The notes beneath the pieces were generated by a model that saw nothing but the letters and a program-made list of their open reading frames with translations, was not told the origin of the DNA and did not search any database. From the NCBI GenBank assembly GCA_020343515.1, contig CP070798.1:5692-69691 (forward strand): DNA of 64,000 nt, given 5' to 3'. The position numbers and the translations under genes were made by a program. The number at the start of each line of letters is the position of its first letter. The first letter of the stretch is position 1. Shown here in pieces: positions 8,183 to 63,897 of the stretch. This DNA comes from Thermoplasmatales archaeon (GTDB lineage Archaea; Thermoplasmatota; E2; DHVEG-1).

Positions 8183-8328
8183 ATATTCAAACCTACCTTC
8201 TTTTTATGTTTTCAATTAATTCTCAAGAGAAAAAAATCGATTACCTATTTTGAATAATATCAGGTAACAACACGAATTTCTTGGGGAACCGCATCATTAT
8301 AAATCATGTATTGTTTTCAAGTAAAAGT

Positions 8329-9366
8329 ATGGATATAGATGCAGTAAACTCAGATAACAGCACGTACCAGTTTCTTAGAGGAGCTGATATCACACCTCAA
8401 GATGATGCATTTCATGGGAATATTAACATTTTAGATGTTGAATGGTGGTATTTTGACGGCATATTTGACAATGGATATAGTATCCATGTGGGAGTGAGAA
8501 CCTATCATATAAGAAACAGTGGCATTGTAGAATTCAGGATTAACATCTACAAAAATGGAAAAATCGAAGTTGAATCAACGAAGACCGATCTATTCAGTAA
8601 TTTTTTTTCGTCATATGACCGCCCCCATATTGCTATCAATGGTAAACAGGTCATCGAATTTGATCAAGATCATTATAAAGAAACTGGAAAATGGAGATAT
8701 TATGTAACATTAAAAATTGACAATCACGAGGCTAATCTCTCGTTTACTGGCACCACCCAGGGATGGAAAATCGAGACATCTGATACATGCTGGACGGTTG
8801 CATTACCCAAGGCTAAAGTTACTGGAACAATAACTGCCAATGGAAATACAATACAGGTAAAAGGAGTGGGGTATCATGATCATAACTGGGGGTATTCCCC
8901 CACTACAATGTTTAAGAATTTGGGATGGTTCTGGGGACGCATCATTGGAGATACATTGAACATAACCTGGACAAAAACAATGCAAACTATCAAAAAAGGA
9001 GATTTAATAGCAATAGTAAACCAAGATGAAAACAACATCCAGGACAAAAAAGAATTCTATAGCATCCCTCCAACAAATATCTTATTCGCCCTGGAAAAGT
9101 TTGAGAAAAACCATCGACAGTTGATACCCACTGAGTTTGATTTACAGATAATAGATACTATCTCAGATAATAATATCCCGATAAATGCACACATACATAT
9201 GATAACTCTTTATACGCAACACACGAGAATTTTTACTGCCCATTACTGGAGATACCTTGTCAAAGCAACTGGAAAAATATCTCTAGGTTCTACAACTGAA
9301 ACATTAGATGACAAAACGCAGATAATGGAATATCTCAGTTTCAAATCACAAAGCCCTAGAAGATGA
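8329..9366 (+). CDS. CrtC/AttH-like (hydroxyneurosporene-synthase-fold, lipocalin-like) protein
   Basis: The DVEWWYFDG motif and a later HDHNWGY motif resemble the CrtC/AttH family. I prefer ATG 8329 to the TTG at 8281. I see no signal peptide. Confidence 0.5.
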   Translation: MDIDAVNSDNSTYQFLRGADITPQDDAFHGNINILDVEWWYFDGIFDNGYSIHVGVRTYHIRNSGIVEFRINIYKNGKIEVESTKTDLFSNFFSSYDRPHIAINGKQVIEFDQDHYKETGKWRYYVTLKIDNHEANLSFTGTTQGWKIETSDTCWTVALPKAKVTGTITANGNTIQVKGVGYHDHNWGYSPTTMFKNLGWFWGRIIGDTLNITWTKTMQTIKKGDLIAIVNQDENNIQDKKEFYSIPPTNILFALEKFEKNHRQLIPTEFDLQIIDTISDNNIPINAHIHMITLYTQHTRIFTAHYWRYLVKATGKISLGSTTETLDDKTQIMEYLSFKSQSPRR

Positions 9367-42704: not shown

Positions 42705-43628
42705 CTACTCCAATATTTCCTTCAGTTCATCCACAATATCTACATCGCTTTCAAAACGTTTAACTTTATCTGTTGCATTTTTTTCAGAGGAATCAATAAA
42801 TGATATACCATTCTTAGCTAAAAGAGTACCTTGAACGGATGCAGTTTTTGATAGGAAAATTTTATCTCCTGACACGTTGCCAACAACATAGGTTTGCCCC
42901 CCGATGTTGACATCGCCATTTGCAACAACATTCCCTTGTATTTTTACCTTTTCTCCACAAACAATGCCTCCTTTCGAATTCAAAGTACCATAAACATTGG
43001 ATCTGTCGTCCACATAAATGTTGCCTTTGGTATCGTAATTCCCCAATACCTTACACTCTTTACCCACGCTAAGGTTGCAGTCTATCTGTGATTTTGACAC
43101 CCCAATGATTGAATTATTTGGAATAAAAAAAAACGTTTCTGAAATGGGTATTGTTTCCCCATCGTTTTGTTCAAGTTCTTCAAGTATTCGCTCAATTTCT
43201 TCACTATGACCCACCTTTAACAGCTGAAGTAGATATATAAAAATATATATAACAACAGGAATTGGACTTCGGATATTTATCCAACCTTTCGCTTCAAATC
43301 CGTTTTCTATTTTAACACTGTCTCCAACATCAAGATCTCCCCTCAAAGAGAGCTTTCCTTTCACCTTAACCTTCTCTCCAAGATATACATTTCCTCCGCT
43401 TTGTATGTCGCCACTTATCTCTGAAAAGATATCCACCCGGACATCATTCGTAGCATGTAGATCCCCACCAGCCATTACATGTTCTCCGACAAATATTCTA
43501 CCATTAGTTTTGACGCCAAATTGAAGCAGGCACCTATCTCCAATTACAACATCTCCATTTGTAGAAATAACGCGCTCCTCAAAACAAGTTTTATCTGGAA
43601 TTATAAGTGTTTTTCTATCGAAAGTCAT
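42705..43628 (-). CDS. two-lobed bactofilin-like (polymer-forming, beta-helical repeat) protein with a central hydrophobic segment
   Basis: Repetitive G-D/N-V/I-x-V/I-G turns fill both halves, for example GDVVIGDRCLL, GDLDVGDSVKI, GNVVANGDVNIGGQTYVVGNVSGD. The halves are separated by IPVVIYIFIYLLQLL and an acidic helix. Confidence 0.6.
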   Translation of the reverse strand: MTFDRKTLIIPDKTCFEERVISTNGDVVIGDRCLLQFGVKTNGRIFVGEHVMAGGDLHATNDVRVDIFSEISGDIQSGGNVYLGEKVKVKGKLSLRGDLDVGDSVKIENGFEAKGWINIRSPIPVVIYIFIYLLQLLKVGHSEEIERILEELEQNDGETIPISETFFFIPNNSIIGVSKSQIDCNLSVGKECKVLGNYDTKGNIYVDDRSNVYGTLNSKGGIVCGEKVKIQGNVVANGDVNIGGQTYVVGNVSGDKIFLSKTASVQGTLLAKNGISFIDSSEKNATDKVKRFESDVDIVDELKEILE

Positions 43629-46477: not shown

Positions 46478-47368
46478 ATGAAGTATAAGCTAAGAGGCAT
46501 TGTTGAACTACTCAGGCCATTCACATTACTTGCCCCAGTCATTGTTTCAAGCAGTGTAATGATCGCAAGTCTTATCTATTCTGGAAACACTGATATCTCC
46601 TACTTAACAATAGTCTTAACAGTTATTCCAGCAAGCATTTGTTTTGCTTTATTAAACGGTGCCTCCAATGCATTGAATCAATCTACAGATTTTAAAGAAG
46701 ATAAACTATCAAAGCCATATAGGCCTCTACCCATGGGAAATATAACACAAAATGAGGCAAGAAACATATCCTTTATATTATATGTTTTTGCAATACTACT
46801 GTCTCTAATAATTAATATAACATTTAGTTGGTTTGTTCTACTCATTGCATTCTTTTCAATTACCTATTCTTTACCACCTAGAATGAAAAAATTCCTCTTT
46901 GTAAACCAATTATGGGTAGCCGTCCCAAGAGGATTTCTAGGCATATTAGGATCATGGAGCGTATTTGGAGATCCATTTCAAAAACTACCTCTAGCAATAG
47001 GATTTATTGCCGCGATATTTCTCTTTGGTGGAACAGCTACAAAAGACATACTTGATGCAGAAGCAGATAAAAAAACAGGAACAAAAACTCTAGTTAATGT
47101 TCTTGGTATAAAGAAAACCGCTTTGATTTCGTTTCTATTTATGGCCAGTGCTTTTGCATTAATTATTCCTTTAATAATTCTAAAAATCATAGAATTCTAT
47201 CTATTTCCACTAACTCTACTGGTAGTTCTTAGTTTTCTAATATTTTGGCTTATGATCCACGATCGCAAAAACGAGAAACACGAAAACACTTCCTCATGGA
47301 CGTTGATGTATGCAACATATTTTATTTATGCTGTAAGTTTTGCAATTATTACTATCTCTTTTGCCTAG
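46478..47368 (+). CDS. UbiA-superfamily prenyltransferase, DGGGPS/ChlG-like branch (paralog A)
   Basis: The protein has about 8-9 TM segments. NALNQSTDFKEDKLSKPYRPLPMG is the first Asp-rich motif, with Q in place of D. YSLPPRMKKF is present. KDILDAEADKKTG is the second Asp-rich motif. Confidence 0.8.
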   Translation: MKYKLRGIVELLRPFTLLAPVIVSSSVMIASLIYSGNTDISYLTIVLTVIPASICFALLNGASNALNQSTDFKEDKLSKPYRPLPMGNITQNEARNISFILYVFAILLSLIINITFSWFVLLIAFFSITYSLPPRMKKFLFVNQLWVAVPRGFLGILGSWSVFGDPFQKLPLAIGFIAAIFLFGGTATKDILDAEADKKTGTKTLVNVLGIKKTALISFLFMASAFALIIPLIILKIIEFYLFPLTLLVVLSFLIFWLMIHDRKNEKHENTSSWTLMYATYFIYAVSFAIITISFA

Positions 47369-50300
47369 TCAAAAAATTTTTAATCTCTGAAAAAAGGGAA
47401 ATTATAGCCAGTATAGCCGAAGCAACTACCAAATAAAATCCACTAGCAAAGCCCCACTGAGAGTCCATGAGCACTGGTTCTTCTAATGAGATGCTCAAAA
47501 GGCCCTCTCCCTGTACATCGCCAATACTAGCCTCACATATCTTTGATGTACCAACAAAAAACATTGAAACAACTGCAATAATTAGAATAATACCTAAAAA
47601 ATTGAGTAAAAGTGAATAATGTTTTTTCCCAAGCTTGCTTGATATGAAACTAAGGCCTAATAATAGGCAGGCCACATATGCTACAATCACTACTTTCCCT
47701 AAAAAATCAACAAATATTTCAGGCATTTCTGAGATATCAAAAGTTTTCAACCCATCATAAGAGGTAGACTCTACCATAACTTGTGGGTTCATAAACATCT
47801 GGGTAGTTCTCTCTGCCATGGGATGGATATTTGACCCAAATAACCCCCACCATGGCTGAATCAAAGCAATAATTATAAAGGCTATCGCTAAAAACTTCAA
47901 TAGAGAGGCTACCGACAACATCCTCTTAAAAGTCAAAACTATGATTACACCAATAAAAACCAATGCGGATCCAAAAATTAACGCTGGAAAAGGTGAACTT
48001 AACGTTGTAACAAGCTTGATATTTCTGTCATTTATCAACTCTACCTTTTTGATTCCAACTAACTCTCCATCATTGTATGCTTTGATTGTGTAACTAGCAG
48101 GTGGCAGAGAAAACGTTTTTTCATGGGATTCAAGTAATATTCTTCCACTTCTTAAAATTTCGAAATCTATATCTTCTTCTAAAAGTGGATTTGCTCGTGA
48201 ATCAAAAATTTCTACTCCAAGATCGAATAAAGCTGTAAATTTAATGCTAACAAACTTACCGTCATCTGGTAAATTCAAAATTTTTTCATCAACAAAATTG
48301 GCATAAGTAACTTGAATTGTATATTCCCCGGAAGGAATATCTTCAAAAAAGAATTTGCCAGGTTCGATTTCTTCACCTATAAGTTGAACAACTTCGCCAC
48401 CCTCAGAATTTGTTAGTGCTGGAGTGATCTCGACACCCGGTGGGAGATCAAAAACATCTCCTACCTCAAGTGTCAAATCATAAAGCTCGATATCAGCCCT
48501 TAATTTAAGTTTTCTAAGGGAATTCTTAAGTTCTCCATCATAAACAACGAGATCTCTATAAAACGCTTGTAATACATATGGGGTCCCTGCTGGGGCTTTT
48601 AATACAACCTCCCCCGCATCACCCGTCGTATTCTCATCAAAAATATATCCATCTATATTTAATAAAACTACATTTACGCCGTCAATGCCCTGACCCTCCT
48701 GATCAGTAAATGTCACTTTTATTGGACGCTCCCACAGGCAAAAAACATGAACCTTTTTATTTCCATCAATTGTGACTGTCTTGGCACCATTGAAAAACTT
48801 GGTTGAATTATCAAGTTTCCAATACACCTTTATTAGATAATCGCCCTCAACAACCTCTGTAAATACTTTACGTGCCCTATATCTAATAAGGTAGGGTTTA
48901 TTTGCATTTCCTGATGAAACGAGTTTCCCATCACGATGTAATTCAATCCACATAACTGGAAAGTGACGGCCTGTTATATTTGAAAGCCGTGGATAAGAAA
49001 ACCTGGTGCCACCGAGATAGGAAAAAACTGTTAAATCATACTTTTTTCCCTCTTTTTCAAAGGCAGTGTCTACCGATAGATAACGATGCTTGACCAATTC
49101 TCGATATATTTCTGCTTCTTTTCGAACCGCTGCATATCCGCCTTCATCAGATGTAAACAATTCTGCTTCAAACTCAACAACAAAATTTTCAGGTATCTTT
49201 AAATCATGACTATACCCTTTTTCATACGAATTTCTACCAAAATTTATTGAAGCATAATCAACCTCAGTGCTAAGGAAATCAAAATATTCTTTCTCTGCAA
49301 CTTTCAATTGGATACCATCCCTTTCATTGGTGCCCGATTTAACAATATTCTTATCTGAGGAGAAAATGATTGAATTGGCTTTTTCACCATCTCCATAGGC
49401 GATCCAAGCTTCTTCTCCAAGGTCAGCATCATCTTTAAAAGATATTATCCATTCACGTTTTTTAGATTCAGGTTCGAGATTCATTTGATACTCTTTGATA
49501 TCATCATTTTCCCCATAAAAATGCAAATATGGATATATATCTCCCACGTTCAATTTTTTTATGGCAGGGCTCTTTGATTTAAAAGAAGCCATCATACCAA
49601 ATCGCCCATCGATATTTTCTTTCCCTTTTACAATCACTTCATCAAGCATTTCATGTTTTACTCGAACACAAAGTCTTTTTTCATCTACGGGAGAGTAATA
49701 ATATCTATAGACTGCCGTGGTTCTTATATCCCTTTTATTGGATTCACTTTTAATACCAAATTCGACCATCAGGTTTCCATCAACTAGTATTTCTTTGGAG
49801 ACAAATAATTGATCTGAAGAACTTTCATCTCTTTCTTTATCTCCATGATAGTAAGAAAAGGCAAAAGATACAATTTGATCAGAATCAAGGACCTCCATCT
49901 TTTCCCTCGCTTTTTTCTGTTTTACAACGATTTGGGAAAATGCACGGTCAAGTAGCTTACCTTCTTGCCCGACACCATAGACGTAGTAGCCCTCTTCCTT
50001 AATTCCATAATATTTCGCCTCCACTGAGATACTAGATATCGGTGAATAAGAATAATAAGAATCCTCAACGCTGACATGATCTTTATACCTTGGTGAAGAT
50101 TTTTTAGTATCATCGTAGTATACATAGTATTTTTCATCGCCGTTTGCAATTTCTGGCACTAGAAAAACCAAGCTACATTCCTGGATATGATCTGTGTCGA
50201 TAAAACTAAGATCATATATCTGCGACTCGAGCTTATACCATTTTTTATCATTCCAACAACAAACCCTTAACGAGGTTTCATTCTCATTTTTAGTCCAACA

Positions 50301-50510
50301 AGGGTTGTTAAAATTTATTCGGATGTCAATAGGCTGATATTTTGTATAAGAATCATTTGTTTTAATTGGTAACTGTATCTCCTGCCTGTAAGACCATTCT
50401 TTGTTCCAGAAGGGCACTGATTCATCATCTGAAGAAGCAGATATGGGCAGAGCTAAGGAAAATAAAAGGATTAACGCAACATAAACTATTTCAATATCTG
50501 TATTTCGCAT
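47352..50510 (-). CDS. 1052-aa envelope protein: signal peptide, DUF2341-like N-domain, several carboxypeptidase-regulatory-like beta-sandwich repeats, C-terminal multi-TM block
   Basis: FWNKEWSYRQEIQLPI ... YYVYYDD fits the DUF2341 pattern. Three repeats follow a 'D..G..I.G..V.L... G.Y.I' pattern. The C-terminal roughly 230 aa carries about 6 hydrophobic helices. Confidence 0.75.
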   Translation of the reverse strand: MRNTDIEIVYVALILLFSLALPISASSDDESVPFWNKEWSYRQEIQLPIKTNDSYTKYQPIDIRINFNNPCWTKNENETSLRVCCWNDKKWYKLESQIYDLSFIDTDHIQECSLVFLVPEIANGDEKYYVYYDDTKKSSPRYKDHVSVEDSYYSYSPISSISVEAKYYGIKEEGYYVYGVGQEGKLLDRAFSQIVVKQKKAREKMEVLDSDQIVSFAFSYYHGDKERDESSSDQLFVSKEILVDGNLMVEFGIKSESNKRDIRTTAVYRYYYSPVDEKRLCVRVKHEMLDEVIVKGKENIDGRFGMMASFKSKSPAIKKLNVGDIYPYLHFYGENDDIKEYQMNLEPESKKREWIISFKDDADLGEEAWIAYGDGEKANSIIFSSDKNIVKSGTNERDGIQLKVAEKEYFDFLSTEVDYASINFGRNSYEKGYSHDLKIPENFVVEFEAELFTSDEGGYAAVRKEAEIYRELVKHRYLSVDTAFEKEGKKYDLTVFSYLGGTRFSYPRLSNITGRHFPVMWIELHRDGKLVSSGNANKPYLIRYRARKVFTEVVEGDYLIKVYWKLDNSTKFFNGAKTVTIDGNKKVHVFCLWERPIKVTFTDQEGQGIDGVNVVLLNIDGYIFDENTTGDAGEVVLKAPAGTPYVLQAFYRDLVVYDGELKNSLRKLKLRADIELYDLTLEVGDVFDLPPGVEITPALTNSEGGEVVQLIGEEIEPGKFFFEDIPSGEYTIQVTYANFVDEKILNLPDDGKFVSIKFTALFDLGVEIFDSRANPLLEEDIDFEILRSGRILLESHEKTFSLPPASYTIKAYNDGELVGIKKVELINDRNIKLVTTLSSPFPALIFGSALVFIGVIIVLTFKRMLSVASLLKFLAIAFIIIALIQPWWGLFGSNIHPMAERTTQMFMNPQVMVESTSYDGLKTFDISEMPEIFVDFLGKVVIVAYVACLLLGLSFISSKLGKKHYSLLLNFLGIILIIAVVSMFFVGTSKICEASIGDVQGEGLLSISLEEPVLMDSQWGFASGFYLVVASAILAIISLFSEIKNFLTRQKR

Positions 50511-50616
50511 ATTTTTTCCTGTTCAATTTATTATTATAAAGCCTCTAGACATAATATTATATCTAATAATATAATAATCTTTTTAATTATATTAATTGTT
50601 TGAGAAAAATATCAAA

Positions 50617-51576
50617 TTAAGCGAGAAAAGTTAGGCTGCCCATTTCACCAAATATTATAAGCAAGGTGAAACCCATAGCAAAAAGGAGGTATTCTAAATA
50701 CATAAACGACCAGGCGTAAACATTTTCGAGTGTTTTACTTTCACTTTCCTTAAGCAATAGGAAAAAAACAGTAATGCTTAGGATTGTAAATATGGTTAGC
50801 GGTAGAAAATAATAGCTTAGAATGTGGTATCCTATTAAAAGTGGAACTAATGCAAATGGTAAAAACATAAAAGGCAGTGAGATTAAGGCTGATTTTTTTG
50901 TGCCAAATGTGTTTACTAGGGTTCGTACACCTGTTCTTTTATCTGCCTCTCGATCTACTATATCTTTAGTGGTCATAGCTCCTGCGAAAAATAAAAATGC
51001 CATCGTACCAATAACTATAGGTTCTCTCTGAAATGGATCGCCAAAAACACTCCAAGATGCAAGAATGCCGAGAAGCCCTCGTGGAATAGCTATCCATAGC
51101 TGATTTATAAACAAAAATCGTTTCATTCTTGGAGGAAGGGAATACGTAACTGTAAAAATCATTATGAGAAATACAAAAACCCCAAACCATACATTTATTG
51201 TGACTGCGCGAAGAAGGGCAAATAGGTATAAGATATAGGCGATACTTTGGGCTTCTGCTGGTTCTACTACACCTCGTGGAATAGGACGGTATGGTTTAGA
51301 AATCTTATCAGCCTCAGCATCTGTGGCTTGATTAAGAGCATTTGAAGCAGCATTAAGAAATGTAAGAGTAAGGCTTGCTTGACCAATGGTAATCCACCAA
51401 TCAGGAAAATCAGCAAATCTATCATTATATACGAGACTTGCAAACATGATAAACATCGAGACAAAAAACGGAGCTGCCAGAGTAAAGGGTCGGAGTAGGT
51501 CAATATATCCTCTGAAGCGTATCGATAAAAACTTTGATTTACTGTATGGTTCTTTCATCGTTAGTTTCATCGACAT
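50617..51576 (-). CDS. UbiA-superfamily prenyltransferase, DGGGPS/ChlG-like branch (paralog B)
   Basis: NALNQATDAEADKISKPYRPIPRG, YSLPPRMKRFLFINQLW and KDIVDREADKRTG are present. The protein is collinear with, and clearly paralogous to, 46478-47368. Confidence 0.8.
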   Translation of the reverse strand: MSMKLTMKEPYSKSKFLSIRFRGYIDLLRPFTLAAPFFVSMFIMFASLVYNDRFADFPDWWITIGQASLTLTFLNAASNALNQATDAEADKISKPYRPIPRGVVEPAEAQSIAYILYLFALLRAVTINVWFGVFVFLIMIFTVTYSLPPRMKRFLFINQLWIAIPRGLLGILASWSVFGDPFQREPIVIGTMAFLFFAGAMTTKDIVDREADKRTGVRTLVNTFGTKKSALISLPFMFLPFALVPLLIGYHILSYYFLPLTIFTILSITVFFLLLKESESKTLENVYAWSFMYLEYLLFAMGFTLLIIFGEMGSLTFLA

Positions 51577-51725
51577 TTCTACACCGGTTTTTTACAGATA
51601 ACTTGCCGTAATGTATATTGCTATTATATTAAATACTCTGTCAAGGTAAATCAATATCTAGCTTTATTTGCTAATATAAATATTTTGCTATTTTTTAAAA
51701 GAAATGTAAAATAAGATGTAATAAG

Positions 51726-53129
51726 TCATGAAAGAGAGGGAAAATTCTCACATAACATCTTTGCTGAATTTAATGCACAGTTAAAACCAATGCCTGGAGC
51801 TTTTACGCAATCGCCTATAACATATAAATTTTCGACAGGGGTTCTTATATCAATTTTTTTATTATCAATTGTTTTTGCTACACCATCAAGATGCCACACT
51901 GCGGGATAAATCGCCCAATTAAGATTTGAACGGAAATCAGGTATAAGTCCTTCAAGATTTTTATCTAATAATTCTCTGAGACTCTGCAACATTTTTTTAT
52001 TTTTTGCTTCATCAGGCGTGCAAATAATATATGATTGAACTAGATGATCAAAGGGGGAAAGACCTGATTCTGGCAATGATGCCATGAAATCAATCATTCC
52101 AACAGCATCCTTTCCATCAACACCAACGTCTCTTTCAATAAAATGAAATGTTTTTCCAGGTAAATTGGAATCAATTTTTTTCAGAGAGTAATATGCACAT
52201 AAACTGCCTGTGCCTGTAAGTGATTTTATGTTTTTCACATACTCTTTTGGAAAATATTTTTCGTCAGCAATGGTGAAAAGATCTTGTATGAGAATATTTG
52301 AAACAATGGTTTTAAAATAATGTTCTTTGTTTCCAACAAAAACCCCAGTTGCTTTCTTCCCATCAAAAAGTATCTTTTTCACAGGTTTTTCCAGGTGGAT
52401 CTCACCGCCTTTCTTTGTTATAAAATCGGCTAGCTTTTGATGGATGGCATTAAGTCCATTTTTTGGATAACCTACAGGTTTTGATCCTCTGTAAAGATTT
52501 CTTTGGGCACGAAACATTTCCCCGGTGGAAATACGATCCAGATTGTTAACTGTTGTAATTGATCGGGAAAATATTTCAAGGATGAGTTTCATTTTCCCTT
52601 TTCCATACTTCTCGATTGTCTCTTTCATTGATACAGAATCTAATTGTTTCATTGTTTTCTCACTGGAAAATAACAAGCGAAGTAAATTTGGGAGAATCTT
52701 AAGCTTGTCAGTTCTCGAGAGAAAGGGGAAATCAAATCCATCATCTTTTATTAGGCCGACATATGATTCAAGTATATCGACGTGATCATTAAGTTCGGAA
52801 AGTATACTGTTAAGGTTGGATAAAACACCGCCACCAATTGCATGGTATCCAAGATCTAGCTTGTACCCTCTCAACATCTTTTTCTCAAAAATTATTTGCA
52901 AATCTGGATCTGAAAATTGGATATGCATATGAAATCTTGATAATAATTCCTTGTATCTTTCAAGGGTAAATGATGTCAAATCATCAAAAGAGAGGGCTCT
53001 ACCGCCAATCAATGCCTCTTTCTCAAATATTGCAACTTCATAACCTTTCTTTGTTAATAGGGCTCCGGCAGTTAAACCACCAATTCCCGCTCCTATTATA
53101 CATATATCTGACTCTCCTTTGTCATCCAT
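51726..53129 (-). CDS. CrtI/phytoene-desaturase-family FAD-dependent oxidoreductase
   Basis: The N-terminal ICIIGAGIGGLTAGALLTKKGYEVAIFEK forms a GxGxxG-E fold. The C-terminal LYVIGDCVKAPGIGFNCALNSA resembles the CrtI-family FAD motif. The ATG at 53129 lies 1 nt after the upstream stop. Confidence 0.7.
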   Translation of the reverse strand: MDDKGESDICIIGAGIGGLTAGALLTKKGYEVAIFEKEALIGGRALSFDDLTSFTLERYKELLSRFHMHIQFSDPDLQIIFEKKMLRGYKLDLGYHAIGGGVLSNLNSILSELNDHVDILESYVGLIKDDGFDFPFLSRTDKLKILPNLLRLLFSSEKTMKQLDSVSMKETIEKYGKGKMKLILEIFSRSITTVNNLDRISTGEMFRAQRNLYRGSKPVGYPKNGLNAIHQKLADFITKKGGEIHLEKPVKKILFDGKKATGVFVGNKEHYFKTIVSNILIQDLFTIADEKYFPKEYVKNIKSLTGTGSLCAYYSLKKIDSNLPGKTFHFIERDVGVDGKDAVGMIDFMASLPESGLSPFDHLVQSYIICTPDEAKNKKMLQSLRELLDKNLEGLIPDFRSNLNWAIYPAVWHLDGVAKTIDNKKIDIRTPVENLYVIGDCVKAPGIGFNCALNSAKMLCENFPSLS

Positions 53130-53130
53130 T

Positions 53131-54135
53131 TTACATCCTCGGTTTAAAAAGTTTTTCACCGATGAGCGGTGTGAATATTATGTACCATAATACAGGTAAA
53201 ATTATCAATATTACTGAAGACAAAATCCCAATAGTTGAAATTAGCATTATTGGAACTAAAGAATACCGTAAAAACGATTGCAATCCAATGTATTTTCTGA
53301 TAGCACTCCTCTCAAATGTTTTTGATGATATTAGTTTTGTGCTAAAATATATCATTCCTACTGTTGCTAATGCCAAGATAATAATTTGCCACAGGTAATA
53401 TTCGTATCCAAAGAAAACAAATGGTGTAAACAAGAGAAACGCTGAAAATAATCGTATCCCCATACCAAATGCTTTAAAATGACCGGGTATAAAGATTTTG
53501 TCTCCATCAACTTTTACACCTGATCTCAGTGCAATATTTTTCACCCCTCTAATAAAGTCATGATCTGAATCCTTAATTCCACCTTCAACAGCATTCATGT
53601 GCAGGGTTTGATTAAAAGTTAAGATAAATATAATCCAGGTTAACAGCGTTGGTCTACCAAATGAAAGAGCGCCGAAGAGAAAAACAAATCCCATTGATAT
53701 CGCAACCAAAAAATCTGACCCCACGATTTTTTTCCCATAGAGGTCGTAAATACTACCCAGAGTTCCGGCTAAGAAAATCGAGATTACTGCTGCAAATTTA
53801 TACTCATCAATGGTAGCTCCACGCCATAGTATAAAAATAAAAAGGAACGATAGAAGAATTAAAAAAACGCATATAGCGACTGCGTTTTTTCTTGATATGT
53901 CACCGCTTACGAGAGGTTTAGAATGTAGTTCTTTTACCAGTTTATCGAGTTCAACATCAGCATAATCATTGAGAATAAATCCATATATCCCTGCAAAAGC
54001 ACCAATTATAAAAAGAATTAATAGGCTATAGAAATCATACACGCCAACCGTAAGAGCTGCAATAATTGGAGGGGTAGCAAGTCCCCCTATTCCAGGGACA
54101 CGCAGTAATTTTGCATAGGCAACAACTTTGTTCAT
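53131..54135 (-). CDS. UbiA-superfamily prenyltransferase (paralog C, canonical NDxxDxxxD)
   Basis: GFILNDYADVELDK...KPLVSG and GGIKDSDHDFIRG are present, with about 9 TM segments. I prefer the ATG at 54135 to the overlapping upstream ATG at 54219. Confidence 0.75.
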   Translation of the reverse strand: MNKVVAYAKLLRVPGIGGLATPPIIAALTVGVYDFYSLLILFIIGAFAGIYGFILNDYADVELDKLVKELHSKPLVSGDISRKNAVAICVFLILLSFLFIFILWRGATIDEYKFAAVISIFLAGTLGSIYDLYGKKIVGSDFLVAISMGFVFLFGALSFGRPTLLTWIIFILTFNQTLHMNAVEGGIKDSDHDFIRGVKNIALRSGVKVDGDKIFIPGHFKAFGMGIRLFSAFLLFTPFVFFGYEYYLWQIIILALATVGMIYFSTKLISSKTFERSAIRKYIGLQSFLRYSLVPIMLISTIGILSSVILIILPVLWYIIFTPLIGEKLFKPRM

Positions 54136-54181
54136 CTGATGTAAGGAAAAAGTTGATGCTATTTGAGTTTTTCTAAAAGAG

Positions 54182-55204
54182 TTACATTGTTTTAGGTTGT
54201 AAGATTGTCCCATGAACAATTATATTTGAAAGAACGTAACCTAAGGCAGGGAAAAATACTAGAAAACCTGCCCAAATGTTCAGACTCATTAACATAATCG
54301 GGACAAGAGTAAAATTAATAACATAATGACTTCCGATAAGTTTCCTAGCTTTAAACCGTTCAAAGCGTTTCATGGATAGAAGTTTATGTGATAAAACAAA
54401 CATAGCGACGCCAATAATTATAAGAGCAAACCACTGGAAATACTGCAAATACTCATATCTAGTAAAACCTGGAATAATAAAAAAGGGTAGAAATACGATT
54501 ATTAAATCAAACAATTGAATAGAATAAGCAAGTGTTTTAAAACCAGATGATACTTTTAGATTTCCATTTACAATTCTTACTCCTAATTTTATTGCAAGTG
54601 TTTTTGCTCCTTTCTTAAAATCATTTTCTATATCTTTCATACCACCCGCGACTATCTGCATAAAAAGTACCTGGATTGAGCCAAGTACACAGACTACCCA
54701 AGCCAACGCAGTAATATCATAGATGTTATTCACAGGATTCTTTCCATAAAAAGACCCGTATAAAATCAAAAAGAATATACCTAATGCTACTAATATATCA
54801 GTAAAAGGATACTTCTTACTAATTAGATTGTAAAATGTAATAAAAAATGCTGCCCCTACAAGAATCACAATAGAAAAGATTCTTTGGGTTGATACCGCAA
54901 GATATATTGCTATTATGAAAGCAACGATCATTGATAGAAATGCGTATGTCCATGCTTTTTTTATTGATATAGTACCGCTGACTAATGGTCGATCACTAAT
55001 TTCTTTAGAAAATTTATCGATTTTATAATCAACAATATCATTAAGAACAAATCCAAAGGTATGGCCTAAAAAACCGATTAAAAACAACAATATAAGATAA
55101 GCAACATTATATTGCTCCATAGCAATAGCGCCCATGACAGGGGAAATACCTGTCAATACAGCATTGAATGATCGAGCTAGCTTAAGATACTCTCTAATCA
55201 TCAT
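54182..55204 (-). CDS. UbiA-superfamily prenyltransferase (paralog D, canonical NDxxDxxxD)
   Basis: GFVLNDIVDYKIDK...RPLVSG and GGMKDIENDFKKG are present, and the protein is collinear with paralog C. I prefer the start at the MM pair (55204). Confidence 0.75.
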   Translation of the reverse strand: MMIREYLKLARSFNAVLTGISPVMGAIAMEQYNVAYLILLFLIGFLGHTFGFVLNDIVDYKIDKFSKEISDRPLVSGTISIKKAWTYAFLSMIVAFIIAIYLAVSTQRIFSIVILVGAAFFITFYNLISKKYPFTDILVALGIFFLILYGSFYGKNPVNNIYDITALAWVVCVLGSIQVLFMQIVAGGMKDIENDFKKGAKTLAIKLGVRIVNGNLKVSSGFKTLAYSIQLFDLIIVFLPFFIIPGFTRYEYLQYFQWFALIIIGVAMFVLSHKLLSMKRFERFKARKLIGSHYVINFTLVPIMLMSLNIWAGFLVFFPALGYVLSNIIVHGTILQPKTM

Positions 55205-55571
55205 TCTAAAAAAACCAGAAGCAGAAATAGAATAAAAAACCATCGATATAGAAATAGAAAGCAATTAAAACAATAATTAGCCTATATTTCAAGACTATTT
55301 CTGATCAATAAAAACAGAGTGGAATTATTGAAAATTAATAGTTCATAACAGTATTTTACAAAAAAAACTATGTTTTTTAAAACCAACCGAATTGAACTTT
55401 AGACATGCTCTGCTAGTTTTTTGATGCTCTACTGGAAAGAAGATATGGTAAATATTTAAAAGAAAATTAGTATGAGTAATTTTTGTATAAAGGATTTGTT
55501 ATAATTATAGAAATCGTTTGTTACAATTCAATAAAATATTAATAAAGGGCTTATTTCTATCACCTTTCTTA

Positions 55572-56210
55572 ATGATAATAACTAAGCAAAAAAAATTTGA
55601 GGATTTAGTGAGATCTGTTGGAGGTGAGCCTGTTTTCCTAGTGGGCTGCAGTGAATGTGCAACTTTATGCCACACTGGCGGAGAAGAAGAAGTGTTGGCA
55701 ATGAAAGATGCTCTTGAGAAGAGAAGAATTCCTGTGTCTGGTTGGGTTGTACTGGATCCTGCATGTCATCTTAACAACAATAAGCGTCTTCTAAAATCCT
55801 ATAAAGAAAAACTAGGAAAATCAAAAAGTATCCTAGTCTTAGCATGTGGAAACGGCGTTCAAACCATAAAAGAAATATTTGATAACAAGGATGTCATTTC
55901 CGGTACTGATACATTATTTTTAGGAGAAATAACGCGTGTCAATTTATTTGACAAAAGATGCAATTTGTGTGGAGAATGCCTTGTAAATCTTTTTGGTGGA
56001 TTTTGTCCTGTTTCACGCTGTCCCAAATCAATGCTTAATGGCCCTTGCGGAGGAGCTAAAGGGGGAAAATGTGAAATAAATCAAGATCTAGATTGCGTTT
56101 GGGATCAAATATATAATTATCTGAAACAAAGAGGAAAACTCCATTTACTAGAAGAAATTCAAAAACCAAAGGATTGGTCTAAGTCGCTTGAAGTTAGGAG
56201 GAAACTATAG
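55572..56210 (+). CDS. metV: methylenetetrahydrofolate reductase C-terminal-domain protein (MetV-like, Cys-rich)
   Basis: CSECATLCHTGG and CNLCGECLVNLFGGFCPVSRCPKSMLNGPCGG are present (the NGPCGG motif of the MTHFR_C domain). The gene lies immediately upstream of metF. Confidence 0.7.
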   Translation: MIITKQKKFEDLVRSVGGEPVFLVGCSECATLCHTGGEEEVLAMKDALEKRRIPVSGWVVLDPACHLNNNKRLLKSYKEKLGKSKSILVLACGNGVQTIKEIFDNKDVISGTDTLFLGEITRVNLFDKRCNLCGECLVNLFGGFCPVSRCPKSMLNGPCGGAKGGKCEINQDLDCVWDQIYNYLKQRGKLHLLEEIQKPKDWSKSLEVRRKL

Positions 56211-56211
56211 A

Positions 56212-57126
56212 ATGAAATCCAAAAGTAACCTAGAAAAAGTGCTTCTAAATGGCAATTTTGCAGTAACGGCTGAAATTGGCCCGCCAAAAGGCTCAGATCC
56301 AAATTCAATAATGAAGAAAGCTAAAATGCTCAATGGATATGCTGATGCTTTCAATATTACTGATAATCAGACCGCAGTAGTTAGAATGTCAAGTTTTGCT
56401 GGATGCTCCATTTTACTAAAAATGAATATGGAGCCCATTATGCAAATGACTTGCAGAGATAGAAATAGGATTGCATTACAGAGCGATATTCTTGGTGCCT
56501 CTGCTTTGGGAATAAAAAACATACTCTTTTTAACGGGAGATCATCAATCTTTTGGCAATCACCCTAGTGCAAAAGGAGTATTTGATATCGATTCTTTGCA
56601 GCTTATTCAGATTGCTAAGAATATGAGGGATAATGGGATGTTTCAAAATGGAGAAGAAATAACCTCAGGCCGGCCGGATGTTTTAATTGGAGCTGCTGCA
56701 AATCCATTTGCCAATCCTTTTGAAGTAAGGATTGACCGCCTTAGTAAAAAAATAACAGCGGGAGCAGATTTTATTCAGACTCAGAGTGTATATAACTTAG
56801 AAATATTTACTAAATGGATAGATGATGTGAGGGCAAACGGGTTTGATAAAAAAGTACATATTCTTGCCGGTGTGACTCCGTTAAAATCTGTAAACATGAC
56901 TAATCGCATGAAATTTCATGTTCCAGGTGTTGACATTCCTGATACCATTTACAAAAGAATAAAAAATGCTAGAGATCCTAAAAAAGAAGGGTATTCAATT
57001 GCATTGGAAACTTTACTAGAGCTTAAAAATATAAATGGAATCCACGGAGTACATATCACTGCTCTTTTCTGGGAAGATATTATTCCTTCTTTAGTCAAAG
57101 AGGCAAGTATACATACGACACCTTGA
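56212..57126 (+). CDS. metF: methylenetetrahydrofolate reductase (MetF, acetogen/archaeal type)
   Basis: FAVTAEIGPPKG, DAFNITDN and a TIM-barrel MTHFR pattern are present. AGGAGG precedes ATG 56212, which lies 1 nt after the metV stop. Confidence 0.8.
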   Translation: MKSKSNLEKVLLNGNFAVTAEIGPPKGSDPNSIMKKAKMLNGYADAFNITDNQTAVVRMSSFAGCSILLKMNMEPIMQMTCRDRNRIALQSDILGASALGIKNILFLTGDHQSFGNHPSAKGVFDIDSLQLIQIAKNMRDNGMFQNGEEITSGRPDVLIGAAANPFANPFEVRIDRLSKKITAGADFIQTQSVYNLEIFTKWIDDVRANGFDKKVHILAGVTPLKSVNMTNRMKFHVPGVDIPDTIYKRIKNARDPKKEGYSIALETLLELKNINGIHGVHITALFWEDIIPSLVKEASIHTTP

Positions 57127-57295: not shown

Positions 57296-60200
57296 GTGAT
57301 CGAGGCTATGTTAACAGTTTTGGGGAGATTTATAGAAAAAAAACCGTGGTTCGTTGTCACTATAATAATACTCATAACCATAGGATTTTCTACACTTCTT
57401 CCATCATTAGAGTTCAAAACCGATTTTAATGAATTCATGCCAGATGATGATATCGTATCAGCAAATACTCGAGTTCTTGACTATTTTGGTATGAGTCAAT
57501 TGCCTATGTTTCTTCTCGTTGAAAAACAACAAGCAGAGAACGTCATAACACCACAGGCAATACGAGAGATTTATTTTATTGAAAATGAATTAAAAAAACT
57601 TCCAAAGGTCAATGGAACAATAGCGATAACGACACTTCTAGATCCCGTATGTTTAGTTGAGTTTGGTAAAACAATTAAGAACTGCTCCGATGAAGAGATA
57701 ACAATAGCGTTACAAGATATGCTTAAGGAAGAAAAATCAGGAGAAATACTAGTTTTTAATAACGATGATCCCAACGAACAGATTGACTATAAACGACACC
57801 CTCGATTTTCTAAGGGAAAATCAATTGATAGTGCAGACATAAAAAATTGTTATATTTCTAAAGATAACGACACTTTAACATTTTCCATTGAAGTATATGA
57901 TTTATCAAGTCTGGGACCTTCGCTTAAACCATCTTTGACAAAAGTAAACGTGATGGAATGGTATCTCGATTTTGAAAATCTCATAATTCCTGATGAAAGA
58001 CTTGATATTGATTATCGAATTGCTGCACATATAGAACCAACCCATCCACTGTGGGAGATTGGGGGGGGATTATTAAATAATTTACGAGAACTATTCCAAC
58101 ATATCAGAGATAGGGAGCTTTTTAATTCATATAAAAAAGAAGTATATCTCTGGGTCAAACCCCCTGATCAAACCATGTATTTTCCGATTCCTCTTACAAC
58201 TGGTAATATTACATTAGATAAAGGTATGAACAGAATCAACATTGTTGTTTCAAGGGATGAACTTCGAAACTATGGGTTGGCAACCCGAGTTGGTTCATTT
58301 GAACTTCCAGCAAAATTAAGTAATTTTAATGCAGGGGTTCGGTATTACCAAACCTCCATTTTAAAACGTCCAGGTGGCAGGATCGCTTTTAATATAAGTT
58401 TTCTGTTGAATAGAATTGAAAAACTCCGTTCAAGACCTATTCTTGGCAGCATTGCAACACGGATATTACAAAAATATGGTGATATCACCTGGGAAGATTT
58501 CGACCAATTATTCACAATGATGGAACAAACCGATTTACTCCCTGAGAAGATTGCATTACAAGACATTGATAGTGCATGGACTTCATCAGATGTTGCACCT
58601 GATGAAGGCGTTTCTCATACTGTTTTTTCAGTTTATCCATATCTATTTAAGGATATACAAGTCAGTTCGCTAGCGTTACTTTCCAAAGATTATGAACAAA
58701 CGGACCAGCCTAAAGCCAGTCTAATTATACTACAGTTAGCGGTTATGACTGATTACAATGAACTCCTAAAAACAAATGAGGAAGTTCTCTATAAAATCGC
58801 TGAGCTCGATAAAGAGAATGATTATGTTTCTGTCAAGGTGACTGGAGAAACTGTTGTTTCATCGCAGATTGATGAATTGACATCTGATGCGAATCAGATC
58901 TTAGGACCTTCAATTTTCATCATTATTATGATTATATTATTTTTTAGTTTTAGAAGAACGTCATATGTTTTCCTTCCAATGCTTGCCCTCATTGTATCCA
59001 CGATATGGCTTCTTGGAACCATGATACTTCTGGGGATCGCCTTTAATGTAATCGCAGTTGCTCTTATTCCATTAATTTTGGGACTTGGTGTCGATTATTC
59101 AGTCCATCTTTTCCACAATTATCGCACAGAACTTGAAAGTGGTAGGTCACCAGCTGAGGCAATAAAACGGTCTGTTAAGGATATCGGAACCGCGATGTTT
59201 TTAGCTTGGCTTACTACATTCATCGCCTTTATGTCGTTTTTAAGTTCAAGCATTCCTCCAATCAGACATTTTGGTATACTCCTTGCATTAGGAGTAAGTT
59301 ATACATTTATTACTGCTATCACTCTTTTAGCATCTTTTCGATACATACTTGACAGAAGAAAAACGCCAAAAATAAAAAGGAAAACAGAGTTATTCTCTAT
59401 AAAAAATATTATGGGAAAAACTGCTTCTACTGTTTTAAGGCATCAAAAAAAGATACTCCTCATTGTGATTTTTATTTCTATTGTTTTTGCATCGGGAGCA
59501 ATACAACTTGAGAGAGGATTTGATATGGATCAATTTGTACCTCCGGATAACCCAGCCTTGGAACTTTTTGATGAGATAGCAGAAAACTTTCCGTATTCCA
59601 GTGAGTATCAAGAATATATCCTTATTGAGGGGAATGTTGCTTCTGTTGAGGTATTGAAGGGCATTGCTAAGACACATAAGAATATAGATGATGACACCTA
59701 TGTAAGTCGAAATACTGATGGAAGTATTAAGGTAACAAGTATATACTCGGTTATTCAACGCACAATCAAAAATAACAGGTCTCTCATTGCTAGGTTCAAT
59801 ATAGACGAGGAAACAAATATTCCTAAAACCGATGAAGACCTGCGAGCACTTTATGATTATCTTTACGAGGGTGCCTATTTAAATGTGGGCAGCATTGAAA
59901 CAGGTGAATTTGACATTGGAAATTTAGGAAGGATGGAAGTAGGAACTGTTCTATTTAAAAATAATTCCAGATTTGAAGCAACTGTTATTCGAATCTACAT
60001 CGATGCATCATTTCAGCTAGAAGGCGGTAATATCAATGAAGCACTCGAAACGCTGAAAGAGGAGTTTAATGAAGATATCGAAGATTATGGTGATTCAACT
60101 GCAATTGCAACTGGTGCATCAATTATTCAATTAACAATAACAAAATCTTTAACATGGAGTCAAATTGTTTCAACAGGTGTCTCTCTTATTCTTGCCGTAC

Positions 60201-60679
60201 TGGTCCTTATCCTAGCCTATAGAAATCCAATGCTTGGAATCATTACGATAATACCTGTTGGAATTACTATAGTCTGGATTTTAGGTACAATGTATTACTT
60301 TGGTTATATATTAGATGTAATGACTATAACAGTCACAAGTATTACCATTGGAATTGGTATAGATTATGCAATACATGCAACAGAGCGTTTTCGACTGGTT
60401 GCTGATAAAACTGGGGATATTAACAAGGCGCTTTGTGAAACAATTTCACACACCGGAGGTGCACTTCTCATTGCAGCGCTCACCACATCTCTGGGTTTTG
60501 GTGTACTAATCTTAGCTCCAATTCCACCTCAACAAAGATTTGGTATTATTATTGCTATTACAATCGCTTATTCATTTTTAATATCTGTATTGGCCCTTCC
60601 TCTTTTCCTTGCCAGATGGGCAAAATGGAGAAAAAAACGAAGGGGATTCATTATCTCACCCGGGCCACCGGAGGAATAG
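57296..60679 (+). CDS. RND-superfamily (MMPL/HAE3, COG1033-like) exporter with two 6-TM/SSD-like blocks and very large extracytoplasmic domains
   Basis: The 1127-aa protein has TM1 followed by a soluble region of about 480 aa, then a 5-TM block (GLGVDYSVHLFHNY). A further TM precedes a soluble region of about 230 aa and a second 5-TM block (GIGIDYAIHATERF). Confidence 0.8.
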   Translation: MIEAMLTVLGRFIEKKPWFVVTIIILITIGFSTLLPSLEFKTDFNEFMPDDDIVSANTRVLDYFGMSQLPMFLLVEKQQAENVITPQAIREIYFIENELKKLPKVNGTIAITTLLDPVCLVEFGKTIKNCSDEEITIALQDMLKEEKSGEILVFNNDDPNEQIDYKRHPRFSKGKSIDSADIKNCYISKDNDTLTFSIEVYDLSSLGPSLKPSLTKVNVMEWYLDFENLIIPDERLDIDYRIAAHIEPTHPLWEIGGGLLNNLRELFQHIRDRELFNSYKKEVYLWVKPPDQTMYFPIPLTTGNITLDKGMNRINIVVSRDELRNYGLATRVGSFELPAKLSNFNAGVRYYQTSILKRPGGRIAFNISFLLNRIEKLRSRPILGSIATRILQKYGDITWEDFDQLFTMMEQTDLLPEKIALQDIDSAWTSSDVAPDEGVSHTVFSVYPYLFKDIQVSSLALLSKDYEQTDQPKASLIILQLAVMTDYNELLKTNEEVLYKIAELDKENDYVSVKVTGETVVSSQIDELTSDANQILGPSIFIIIMIILFFSFRRTSYVFLPMLALIVSTIWLLGTMILLGIAFNVIAVALIPLILGLGVDYSVHLFHNYRTELESGRSPAEAIKRSVKDIGTAMFLAWLTTFIAFMSFLSSSIPPIRHFGILLALGVSYTFITAITLLASFRYILDRRKTPKIKRKTELFSIKNIMGKTASTVLRHQKKILLIVIFISIVFASGAIQLERGFDMDQFVPPDNPALELFDEIAENFPYSSEYQEYILIEGNVASVEVLKGIAKTHKNIDDDTYVSRNTDGSIKVTSIYSVIQRTIKNNRSLIARFNIDEETNIPKTDEDLRALYDYLYEGAYLNVGSIETGEFDIGNLGRMEVGTVLFKNNSRFEATVIRIYIDASFQLEGGNINEALETLKEEFNEDIEDYGDSTAIATGASIIQLTITKSLTWSQIVSTGVSLILAVLVLILAYRNPMLGIITIIPVGITIVWILGTMYYFGYILDVMTITVTSITIGIGIDYAIHATERFRLVADKTGDINKALCETISHTGGALLIAALTTSLGFGVLILAPIPPQQRFGIIIAITIAYSFLISVLALPLFLARWAKWRKKRRGFIISPGPPEE

Positions 60680-63369: not shown

Positions 63370-63897
63370 ATGGATTGGAAAGATAGATCTGCCTATGTTT
63401 TTATTAAAACGGCAAAGGGAAAGACGCATGATGTCTGGCAACGCTTCCAGACCTGGGAAAATGTAATAGGTACTTGGATTGTCGGTGGAGAGTATGACGT
63501 TATTGTCTGGTTTGACGCGCAGGACTGGGATACAGTATATAGATGCGTAGGTGAAATTAAAAACTGGAATGACGTAGAACACACAAGTTCACATAGGGTA
63601 TACAATGGTTATAAAAGCGATAGCTGGTGGTGGGAAAAACCAGCTGGTGCTTGGGTGTTATTCAGAGAAAAAAAATTGAACGAGACTCCTGAGAAGATAA
63701 GAAAATGGAGTTGGATGACAAGTGGTGCAAGCATTCCTGGCGACTGGGATTACATTTCATGGGTAGCAGGCAAAAACTGGGACGAAGTGTGGACTCATTT
63801 AAATGAGCTCAAATCAGAAAATTGGCAGACTTATCCATGTGTGCCAATTAAGTCATGGTGGAACCAAACTTGGAAAGATAAATGGTGGTGGGGTTAA
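63370..63897 (+). CDS. tandem RAM (Lrp/AsnC ligand-binding, ACT-like) domain protein, extremely Trp-rich
   Basis: Two roughly 80-aa halves each fit a beta-alpha-beta-beta-alpha-beta RAM pattern (AYVFIKT...GGEYDVIVWFDA... and AWVLFRE...PGDWDYISWVAG...). A GAGGAG ribosome-binding site is present. I count 24 W in 175 aa. Confidence 0.6.
   Translation: MDWKDRSAYVFIKTAKGKTHDVWQRFQTWENVIGTWIVGGEYDVIVWFDAQDWDTVYRCVGEIKNWNDVEHTSSHRVYNGYKSDSWWWEKPAGAWVLFREKKLNETPEKIRKWSWMTSGASIPGDWDYISWVAGKNWDEVWTHLNELKSENWQTYPCVPIKSWWNQTWKDKWWWG

Follow-up and report, generated by a model that had tools for sequence, protein, structure and literature searches.

What does an archaeon make with four intramembrane prenyltransferases of the UbiA type placed side by side with a CrtI-like flavoenzyme? 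This question is raised by a gene cluster in a 64,000-nucleotide stretch of a Thermoplasmatales archaeon (assembly GCA_020343515.1, contig CP070798.1, positions 5,692 to 69,691), and this whole stretch is called the window below. A preliminary description of the window, made from its letters and open reading frames (ORFs), proposed that the four prenyltransferases (A to D), the flavoenzyme and a giant surface protein could make and display or export a specialised prenylated lipid or glycolipid carrier. The matter bears on Thermoprofundales, or MBG-D (Marine Benthic Group D), which are uncultured and among the most abundant archaea in sediments worldwide, and to which, to our knowledge, no lipids have been assigned. 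We consider, at a probability of about 0.5, that the cluster is the Thermoprofundales version of a lineage-specific island for tailoring isoprenoid lipids. Its only ancient invariant unit is the pair of C and the flavoenzyme; D and B are later additions, and the giant gene with A came last.

The families of these genes were assigned by profile, motif and hydropathy searches. A, B, C and D match PF01040 at 127.4, 131.6, 66.6 and 82.7 bits, respectively, all above the Pfam cut-off of 34 bits. Each of them has 8-10 hydrophobic segments in hydropathy plots, some overlapping, and two Asp-rich motifs that are kept within each of the four orthogroups. By PF01040, multiple transmembrane segments and the two Asp-rich motifs, all four belong to the UbiA superfamily, and since the motifs are intact, all four are probably active. 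A and B are 50% identical and C and D 32%, and between the two pairs there are weak, part-length matches (E-values 1e-2 to 1e-7). This confirms that the four genes form two paralogous pairs, as had been described. The flavoenzyme matches PF01593 (55.5 bits) and PF13450 (45.5 bits), and carries the FAD dinucleotide motif GAGIGG at residues 13-18 and a GD motif, YVIGD, near the C-terminus. PF01593 together with an N-terminal GxGxxG motif places it in the CrtI/amine-oxidase fold. The products of A, B, C, the giant gene and the flavoenzyme gene, each read from ATG, are identical to deposited NCBI proteins (UCD13890-92, UCD13894 and P0001).

The arrangement of the genes also agrees with the preliminary description (Table 1). 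The intergenic gaps on the minus strand are 46 nt between D and C, 1 nt between C and the flavoenzyme, 149 nt between the flavoenzyme and B, and 106 nt between B and the giant gene; the stop codon of C and the ATG of the flavoenzyme are 1 nt apart. A and the giant gene converge and share 17 nt. TATA-like motifs were found, as consensus matches only, upstream of B, the giant gene and A, and none was found by the same matching between D, C and the flavoenzyme. This is consistent with an operon of D, C and the flavoenzyme, which are probably co-transcribed, and judging from their spacing C and the flavoenzyme are probably also translationally coupled. The GC content of the cluster is 0.32-0.36, the same as in the rest of the window, so that nothing points to a foreign island, and a horizontal-transfer island was ruled out.

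Table 1. Coordinates of the cluster genes and of related features in the window
Feature	Position	Strand	Evidence
A, UbiA-family prenyltransferase	46478-47368	+	PF01040
Giant 1052-aa surface protein	47352-50510	-	hydropathy, AlphaFold2 (AF2) model
B, UbiA-family prenyltransferase	50617-51576	-	PF01040
Flavoenzyme, CrtI/amine-oxidase-fold FAD enzyme	51726-53129	-	PF01593, PF13450
C, divergent UbiA-superfamily intramembrane prenyltransferase	53131-54135	-	PF01040
D, UbiA-family prenyltransferase	54182-55204	-	PF01040
CrtC/AttH-like putative hydratase	8281-9366	+	34-48% identical to the CrtC/AttH-like proteins at relatives' loci
Dead squalene/phytoene-synthase-like relic (u18), last ~26 codons	55381-55458	+	tblastn, 73% identity over 26 aa
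RND/MMPL (HAE3-like) transporter	57296-60679	+	PF03176, 151 bits, two stretches

Is this arrangement kept elsewhere? We scanned for the flavoenzyme, took one genome per species, called ORFs at the resulting 80 loci and matched them to the genes of the window; the denominators below are the loci with enough flank. All 80 loci come from metagenome-assembled genomes (MAGs) of Thermoplasmatota or 'Methanobacteriota/Euryarchaeota'. In 60 of 61 loci a UbiA gene of the C/D family is found upstream of the flavoenzyme, no more than 1.6 kb away. C itself is immediately upstream and on the same strand in 42/69, separated by 1-9 nt wherever the spacing is measurable. D is found within 4.5 kb upstream in 34/50 loci and B immediately downstream in 39/66, while the giant protein is present in 18/49 and A in 14/43. 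In the deepest-branching loci, where the flavoenzyme is 42-50% and C 53-69% identical to those of the window, the C-flavoenzyme pair alone is kept; B is absent, and the neighbours are unrelated (TrkH, AspRS, a nuclease). Because this is the sole pair left there, C and the flavoenzyme can be regarded as an ancient functional unit. Other clades have other flanking genes, among them MTHFR with LonB, those of H+-PPase and ribosomal protein S24e, and one for a subunit of RNA polymerase, so that the pairing of a C/D-family gene with the flavoenzyme is kept although the surroundings differ. Recurrence in 80 species-level genomes thus upholds the idea that the cluster is a real, conserved functional unit, and conserved adjacency is what the proposed synteny comparison yields. 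Chance adjacency was ruled out by the synteny statistics over these 80 genomes.

The relatives also place the source. Isolate 3300003432D has the gene order of the window, plus an extra C-like UbiA gene and a CrtC/AttH-like gene upstream, and MAG SM1-50 has a homologue of the giant protein with 49% identity. Both genomes are listed as Thermoprofundales (MBG-D) by Zhou et al. (PMC6461988). The source MAG is therefore a member of Thermoplasmatota whose syntenic relatives are Thermoprofundales. The locus is nearly universal in Thermoprofundales and strongly conserved, and it offers a concrete, clonable candidate for a lineage-specific lipid. If this is true, the lipid may become a biomarker of MBG-D for sediment geochemistry.

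C and D stand apart from characterised prenyltransferases. Among NCBIfam models all four proteins match PRK12884, named 'prenyltransferase', best; they score 70-117 bits where 269 are needed, with C at the lower end (70 bits), and none of A to D reaches the cut-off of any NCBIfam equivalog. By this measure none of the four genes falls into a curated housekeeping orthogroup, which agrees with the preliminary description. C has no match among PDB sequences even at E<=10, and the sole PDB match of D is ApUbiA (4OD4, E 2.8e-4). When C was searched exhaustively with phmmer against 1.84 billion cluster representatives, only 777 matches at E<=1e-3 and 71 at E<=1e-30 were obtained. The distant representatives that were looked up are metagenomic and carry generic names ('UbiA' or '4-hydroxybenzoate polyprenyltransferase'), and none of them reaches an NCBIfam cut-off. 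The few phmmer matches and the misses against PDB and curated models place C and D in a small, uncurated UbiA subfamily, and D is by its sequence an old paralogue of C. The locus thus points to an uncharacterised UbiA subfamily without a solved or curated relative. Across 60 orthologues C keeps NDY[AS]DVELD-x8-KPLVSG and KD[AS]DHD; the conserved motifs of D are NDI[VI]DYKID-x8-RPLISG and KDIEND. The shared pattern is a canonical NDxxDxxxD, an eight-residue spacer and [KR]PL[VI]SG, with KDxxxD as the second motif. A role of C or D as quinone or heme O synthase was considered and rejected, as the UbiA, MenA and CtaB models matched weakly and partially (27-46 bits).

Two distant relatives of C were seen in other settings. 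On another archaeal contig, which also holds HTH_10 and DUF7xxx genes, a C-like UbiA gene (36% identity) is divergent from an adjoining geranylgeranyl-reductase paralogue (L087:6389-9002), a second kind of UbiA-flavoenzyme pairing for the C subfamily. A 642-aa UbiA-domain protein 29% identical to C (L088:8001-9929; GCA_041744355.1, JBGTKZ010000253.1) is encoded within a series of TIR-domain genes, close to a patatin-like gene and genes for pentapeptide-repeat proteins; the surroundings resemble those of defence genes and have no relation to the archaeal cluster.

The flavoenzyme is likewise confined to one group as far as searches reach. Its orthologues are 42-85% identical in the 80 species, it has hundreds of close homologues, and all of the matches listed are from Thermoplasmatota MAGs. 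When the most divergent orthologue was used as query, the best 120 matches still belonged to the same Thermoplasmatota family, with no named distant homologue among them. Neither the flavoenzyme nor C has a tblastn match in 72,556 plasmids. The nearest solved sequences are 3KA7 (E 3e-16, deposited only as 'Oxidoreductase') and PF1083/3NRN of P. furiosus, both archaeal structural-genomics proteins without a stated function. An AF2 model of the flavoenzyme, built from a 12-sequence alignment, had a predicted local distance difference test score (pLDDT) of 46, too poor for use.

Which chemistry would join these two families? Two precedents pair UbiA or isoprenoid ether lipids with CrtI-fold enzymes, and they are the reason why we read the locus as a toolkit for chain tailoring. 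In Haloarcula japonica, LyeJ, CrtD and CruF convert lycopene to bacterioruberin (Yang et al. 2015, as cited in PMC9258230). As far as that system is outlined there, the likeness to crtD-lyeJ-cruF lies in a UbiA prenyltransferase adjoining a CrtI-fold flavoenzyme, in the PF04240 protein of some relatives, and in enzymes that would all elaborate terminal isoprene units. On the same outline the differences are that the cluster has four UbiA genes (up to six in relatives) and the bacterioruberin module one; that the window is without CruF and phytoene synthase and its flavoenzyme scores far under the CrtD and CrtI cut-offs; and that C and D form a separate, uncurated subfamily in an anaerobic sediment archaeon. 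The other precedent comes from Methanosarcina acetivorans, whose hydroxyarchaeol synthase Has, a member of the CrtI family, takes unsaturated archaeol as its substrate (Mori et al. 2015; bioRxiv 10.1101/2025.10.20.683597). Has resembles the flavoenzyme by its CrtI fold, and shows that in an anaerobic archaeon such an enzyme can work on isoprenoid ether lipids that are unsaturated. In addition, an AttH-type hydratase that makes hydroxy-GDGTs (glycerol dialkyl glycerol tetraethers) has been described (bioRxiv 10.1101/2025.10.20.683597).

From the gene families, motif conservation, synteny and distribution observed here, we infer substrates, reaction order and product as follows. The UbiA enzymes would use prenyl diphosphates as donors and prenylate an acceptor embedded in the membrane. 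Most plausibly, C and D would alkylate the end of an isoprenoid chain in the manner of LyeJ, and B and A would O-prenylate a polar head in the manner of ChlG or of the synthase of digeranylgeranylglyceryl phosphate (DGGGP), DGGGPS. Isoprenoid double bonds are isomerised, desaturated, hydrated or saturated by enzymes of the CrtI fold; the flavoenzyme would then desaturate, hydrate or saturate one such bond in the chain, like CrtD, Has and RetSat-type members of the fold, and in relatives CrtC/AttH-like, CruF-like (hydratase-like) and geranylgeranyl-reductase (GGR)-like enzymes would join in. Such a pathway would yield a modified isoprenoid lipid found in this lineage alone: either a C40-type polyprenyl that has been elongated or hydroxylated, or an unsaturated ether-lipid precursor that has been altered. 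A bolder form of this proposal is that C/D-type enzymes are a new functional class of UbiA, which with the flavoenzyme add and remodel prenyl units on membrane-lipid chains or C40 polyprenyls and so give an unrecognised lipid class diagnostic of Thermoprofundales; we regard this as speculative and rather unlikely. In literature searches no description of the locus was found, the related material being KEGG-style labels in Zhang et al. 2022 (PMC9585477), which agrees with the earlier statement that no described pathway combines these genes. The enzyme families are known; what is new is the architecture of several UbiA genes with a CrtI-fold gene, the C/D subfamily and the host lineage.

Further isoprenoid genes accompany the locus in relatives, as revealed by clustering the unassigned ORFs of these loci. 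A CrtC/AttH-like putative hydratase occurs in 32 of the loci fetched; of the 44 species-level loci whose flanks are long enough, 18 have it upstream of the flavoenzyme at a distance of up to 6 kb. Its homologue in the window stands 37 kb from the cluster, between a PKD-domain protein and histidyl-tRNA synthetase; Pfam scans revealed no further isoprenoid gene in the scanned part of the window, and this homologue is the sole other candidate. The match to PF07143 (CrtC) is marginal: 20.8 bits for the window protein against a cut-off of 22.5, and 23.2 bits for one member at a relative's locus. A GGR-family gene (TIGR02032, 171 bits against a cut-off of 159) stands between C and the flavoenzyme in relatives. 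A CruF-type membrane protein (PF04240 'carotenoid biosynthesis', 64.9 bits) is encoded within 6 kb upstream of the flavoenzyme in 9/44 relatives; in seven of these loci the CruF-like gene adjoins C and a fifth UbiA type (u24), followed by the flavoenzyme, mostly with the GGR-like gene in between. Of all the UbiA types the fifth comes closest to DGGGPS (128 bits on PRK12884), and a single locus can hold as many as six UbiA genes.

A rare addition, at four of 44 loci, is the synthase-like gene u18, whose product of 330-350 aa has DxxxD and DDIxDxxED motifs and profile matches to CrtM/dehydrosqualene synthases (E 1.4e-4). In the window only its end is left. The relic reads TLDMLC*FFDALLERRYGKYL with in-frame stops and lies between D and MetV (intergenic region 55205-55517); L001, a relative at 81% identity, carries the intact gene (348 aa) at the same position, and by comparison with it ~1.1 kb is deleted in the window. 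Thus, the precedent of UbiA with CrtI in bacterioruberin synthesis, which the preliminary description had invoked, is strengthened by CruF-like, CrtC-like, GGR-like and squalene/phytoene-synthase-like genes at the locus in relatives.

Several points weigh against a tailoring island. The window cluster is without CruF-like and GGR-like genes and holds the synthase only as a relic. Substrate specificity is not readable from UbiA or CrtI-fold sequences, and the likeness to LyeJ and Has is one of analogy. Common descent, and not a common function, could account for the conservation of B, the giant gene and A, and the promoter-like motifs are mere consensus matches. Finally, B may simply be the DGGGP synthase of the organism, 64 kb of whose genome are covered here.

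The last point leads to the rival that survives best, a housekeeping ether-lipid operon, in which B (or A) is the DGGGP synthase, the flavoenzyme is a Has-like hydratase or RetSat-like saturase acting on DGGGP-type intermediates, and C and D perform routine prenylations. B is the only plausible candidate for a DGGGP synthase among the four, and A is by its sequence a younger duplicate of B. Among solved structures MjDGGGPS (6M31) is the best match of both; B matches it at E 6e-14 and aligns with about residues 51-274 of 283, so that B and A align over most of MjDGGGPS, and the spacing from motif 1 to RPxPxG is of the DGGGPS type. B also matches ChlG. Further in favour of this rival, the flavoenzyme is 68-85% identical among its 120 best database matches, as expected of an essential enzyme, and the flanking genes are housekeeping genes. 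A CrtI-family enzyme is also known to modify archaeol precursors (bioRxiv 10.1101/2025.10.20.683597).

However, the profile scores and the first motif do not fit. B gives 117 bits on PRK12884, 79 on DGGGPS, 79 on HPT and 75 on ChlG, all under cut-off. Against the DGGGPS equivalogs (PRK12882, PRK12883, PRK12872), B scores 79 bits where 296 are needed and 64 where 353 are needed, and A scores 84 and 70, respectively. Taken together, A and B range from 64 to 84 bits on the DGGGPS, ChlG and HPT models. Where 6M31 has NDIFDIEID, B has NQATDAEAD, with Gln in place of the first-motif Asp. The canonical NDxxDxxxD was not found as the first motif of A or B, which is NQxTDxxxD; Gln is present in every frequent variant of 18 A and 45 B orthologues. 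In the 45 orthologues of B, NALNQATDxExD-x6-RPIPxG and KD[IV]xDxEAD predominate, with minor variants. Plant homogentisate prenyltransferases carry the same NQxxDxxxD variant of motif 1, and A and B resemble the HPT/ChlG branch at 70-79 bits on both models; these scores are under cut-off, and there is no context of a tocopherol, plastoquinone or chlorophyll pathway. This resemblance is probably the reason for the label 'BchG' in Thermoprofundales, where Zhang et al. 2022 report a 'BchG' gene gained at the ancestor of Subgroup E (PMC9585477). That gene is probably B, and if so, B would not be the universal DGGGPS. Furthermore, deep-branching loci keep C and the flavoenzyme without B, some genomes carry u24 as a third DGGGPS-like type with a higher score (128 bits), and four or five paralogues are more than housekeeping needs. 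We therefore consider the housekeeping operon a plausible rival, yet unlikely.

Somewhat further down stands a genuine C50 carotenoid pathway of the bacterioruberin type, serving photo- or oxidative protection, with C and/or D as LyeJ-type elongases and the flavoenzyme as CrtD, following the KEGG-style annotation of Subgroup E. According to Zhang et al. 2022, some genomes of Subgroup E have CruF and a full set of bacterioruberin genes, next to a heliorhodopsin-linked carotenoid cluster (PMC9585477). The locus itself adds the CruF-like gene of nine relatives, seven of which have all three crtD-lyeJ-cruF families together, and the CrtM-like synthase of some. The adjoining CrtI-fold gene is what would be expected next to LyeJ; the CruF-like gene of the same expectation is seen in those relatives and not in the window, and no NCBIfam match of C or D is named LyeJ or CrtEb. 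Against carotenoids, the window has neither CruF nor CrtB, only the dead synthase, and the flavoenzyme is far under the cut-offs of CrtD (67 against 550 bits), crtI_fam (TIGR02734; 56 against 238) and CrtID (52 against 640), as well as those of CrtO, CRTISO and HpnE. The phytoene-desaturase signature PS00982 was not found in the flavoenzyme by a regular-expression search with a pattern written for this search; the C-terminus reads NLYVIGDCVKAPGIGF. C has no detectable similarity to any solved UbiA, and four prenyltransferases contrast with the single LyeJ that bacterioruberin requires. The C-flavoenzyme pair also occurs in deep-branching MAGs, some named for Guaymas Basin or JdFR, names that suggest habitats without light, hydrothermal or in the subsurface. 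We regard a carotenoid role as improbable, and advise caution with the automated labels 'BchG', 'CrtD' and 'bacterioruberin pathway' given to Thermoprofundales genomes.

The bacterial squalene route of HpnC, HpnD and HpnE with the RND transporter HpnN was compared as well. It shares with the locus a squalene/phytoene-synthase-fold enzyme (a relic in the window, intact in relatives), a CrtI-fold flavoenzyme and a nearby RND transporter with partial similarity to HpnN. It differs in that the HpnE match of the flavoenzyme covers only the FAD-binding N-terminus (47 bits against 283), that UbiA genes are not part of Hpn, and that u18 is rare and dead in the window.

What, then, is the part of the giant protein? 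Hydropathy and an AF2 model from 30 homologues (pLDDT 76) agree on a hydrophobic signal-like N-terminus, a beta-rich ectodomain of ~815 residues and five C-terminal transmembrane helices, the membrane tail containing small beta inserts. Foldseek matches of the model are Gram-positive pilins and adhesins (TIE protein, SpaC, BcpA, SdrD), rhamnogalacturonan lyases and SlaB, a stalk protein of archaeal S-layers; the ectodomain gives E-values of 1e-14 to 1e-6 with low TM-scores, which are due to the many domains of the protein. These results support the signal-like start, beta-sandwich ectodomain and multi-helix tail described previously, but the 'DUF2341-like head' was not recovered: residues 1-479 match no Pfam family at E<=10, and the full length at E<=0.01 gives sub-threshold CarboxypepD_reg and SdrD_B alone. 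No enzymatic or lipid-binding domain was found in the model or by Foldseek. The protein shares tandem beta-sandwich domains in its predicted ectodomain with CnaB-type pilin/adhesin arrays and SlaB, and differs from them by its conserved five-helix C-terminal anchor and by having neither a sortase/archaeosortase signal nor a sequence-level family. On the model it appears to be a generic surface protein. Its orthologues are 46-77% identical and about 1050-1066 aa long.

The giant gene keeps company mainly with A, and both are confined to a subclade. A is found only with the giant gene and is present in all 16 loci having room, and in 14 of these the 3' ends overlap convergently by 20-50 nt. Wherever the downstream flank is long enough, the pair is followed collinearly by NMNAT, LonB, bactofilin and a GTPase, a collinearity explicable by shared ancestry alone. 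In some lineages the gene content hints at polar-lipid (glyco- or sulfolipid) chemistry. Loci L032 (8194-16162) and L012 (1120-6678) hold GNAT, sulfotransferase-family, GT2 (GT21-like), amidotransferase-like and extra UbiA genes; in L032 a 32%-identical paralogue of the giant protein is encoded near a B-like UbiA, the sulfotransferase, the GNAT and the amidotransferase-like gene, and in L012 a GT2 and a sulfotransferase-like gene lie inside the locus. UbiA-family DPPR synthase acts in carrier-lipid glycosylation and sets a precedent.

The strict pairing with A, the content of L032 and L012, this carrier-lipid precedent and an RND gene often within 10 kb could speak for prenyltransferases that build a glycolipid or carrier linked by prenyl phosphate, which would be displayed on the giant protein and the RND pump, attached to them or exported with them, but this is highly improbable, as the giant gene is absent from 31/49 loci including every deep-branching one and otherwise sits in a long collinear block of unrelated genes, its model shows generic adhesin/pilin-like beta-sandwiches, the window cluster contains no glycosyltransferase, and MTHFR genes stand between the cluster and an RND gene whose side varies by clade. 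Under the tailoring island, which we prefer, the giant protein is probably outside the pathway. Lipid 'display or export' by the cluster, and the giant protein and RND exporter as integral parts, are thus the claims of the preliminary description that find no support.

The RND/MMPL gene itself lies further on, as had been described. PF03176 above cut-off and two repeated transmembrane modules place its product in the RND/MMPL family; TIGR00921 (HAE3) gives 280 bits against a cut-off of 352, and HpnN 149 bits. Of the 21 loci for which no less than 8 kb was fetched in each direction, 11 have an RND gene in these flanks, on one side of the cluster or the other, and the gene is a possible associate of the pathway. 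Between it and the cluster, at 55518-57126 (+), an MTHFR gene (PF02219) follows its small C-terminal-domain partner (PF12225/DUF5981), and this pair is collinear with the cluster in many relatives.

Other neighbours were noted in the window. Rfam and tRNA scans of the window gave no matches. A bactofilin-like gene at 42705-43628 (-), with a weak PF04519 match in the orthologue of L004, lies between an Obg/YchF-like GTPase and a membrane LonB protease, and this order is kept across the subclade. At 26803-29034 (-) lies the gene of a gingipain-like peptidase C25 of 743 aa, which has propeptide and PKD domains, and at 6359-8182 (+) that of a 607-aa PKD-domain protein; both proteins look extracellular and fit the protein-degrading lifestyle proposed for MBG-D. 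Lastly, at 63370-63897 (+) there is a 175-aa ORF that is unusually tryptophan-rich and ends in SWWNQTWKDKWWWG.

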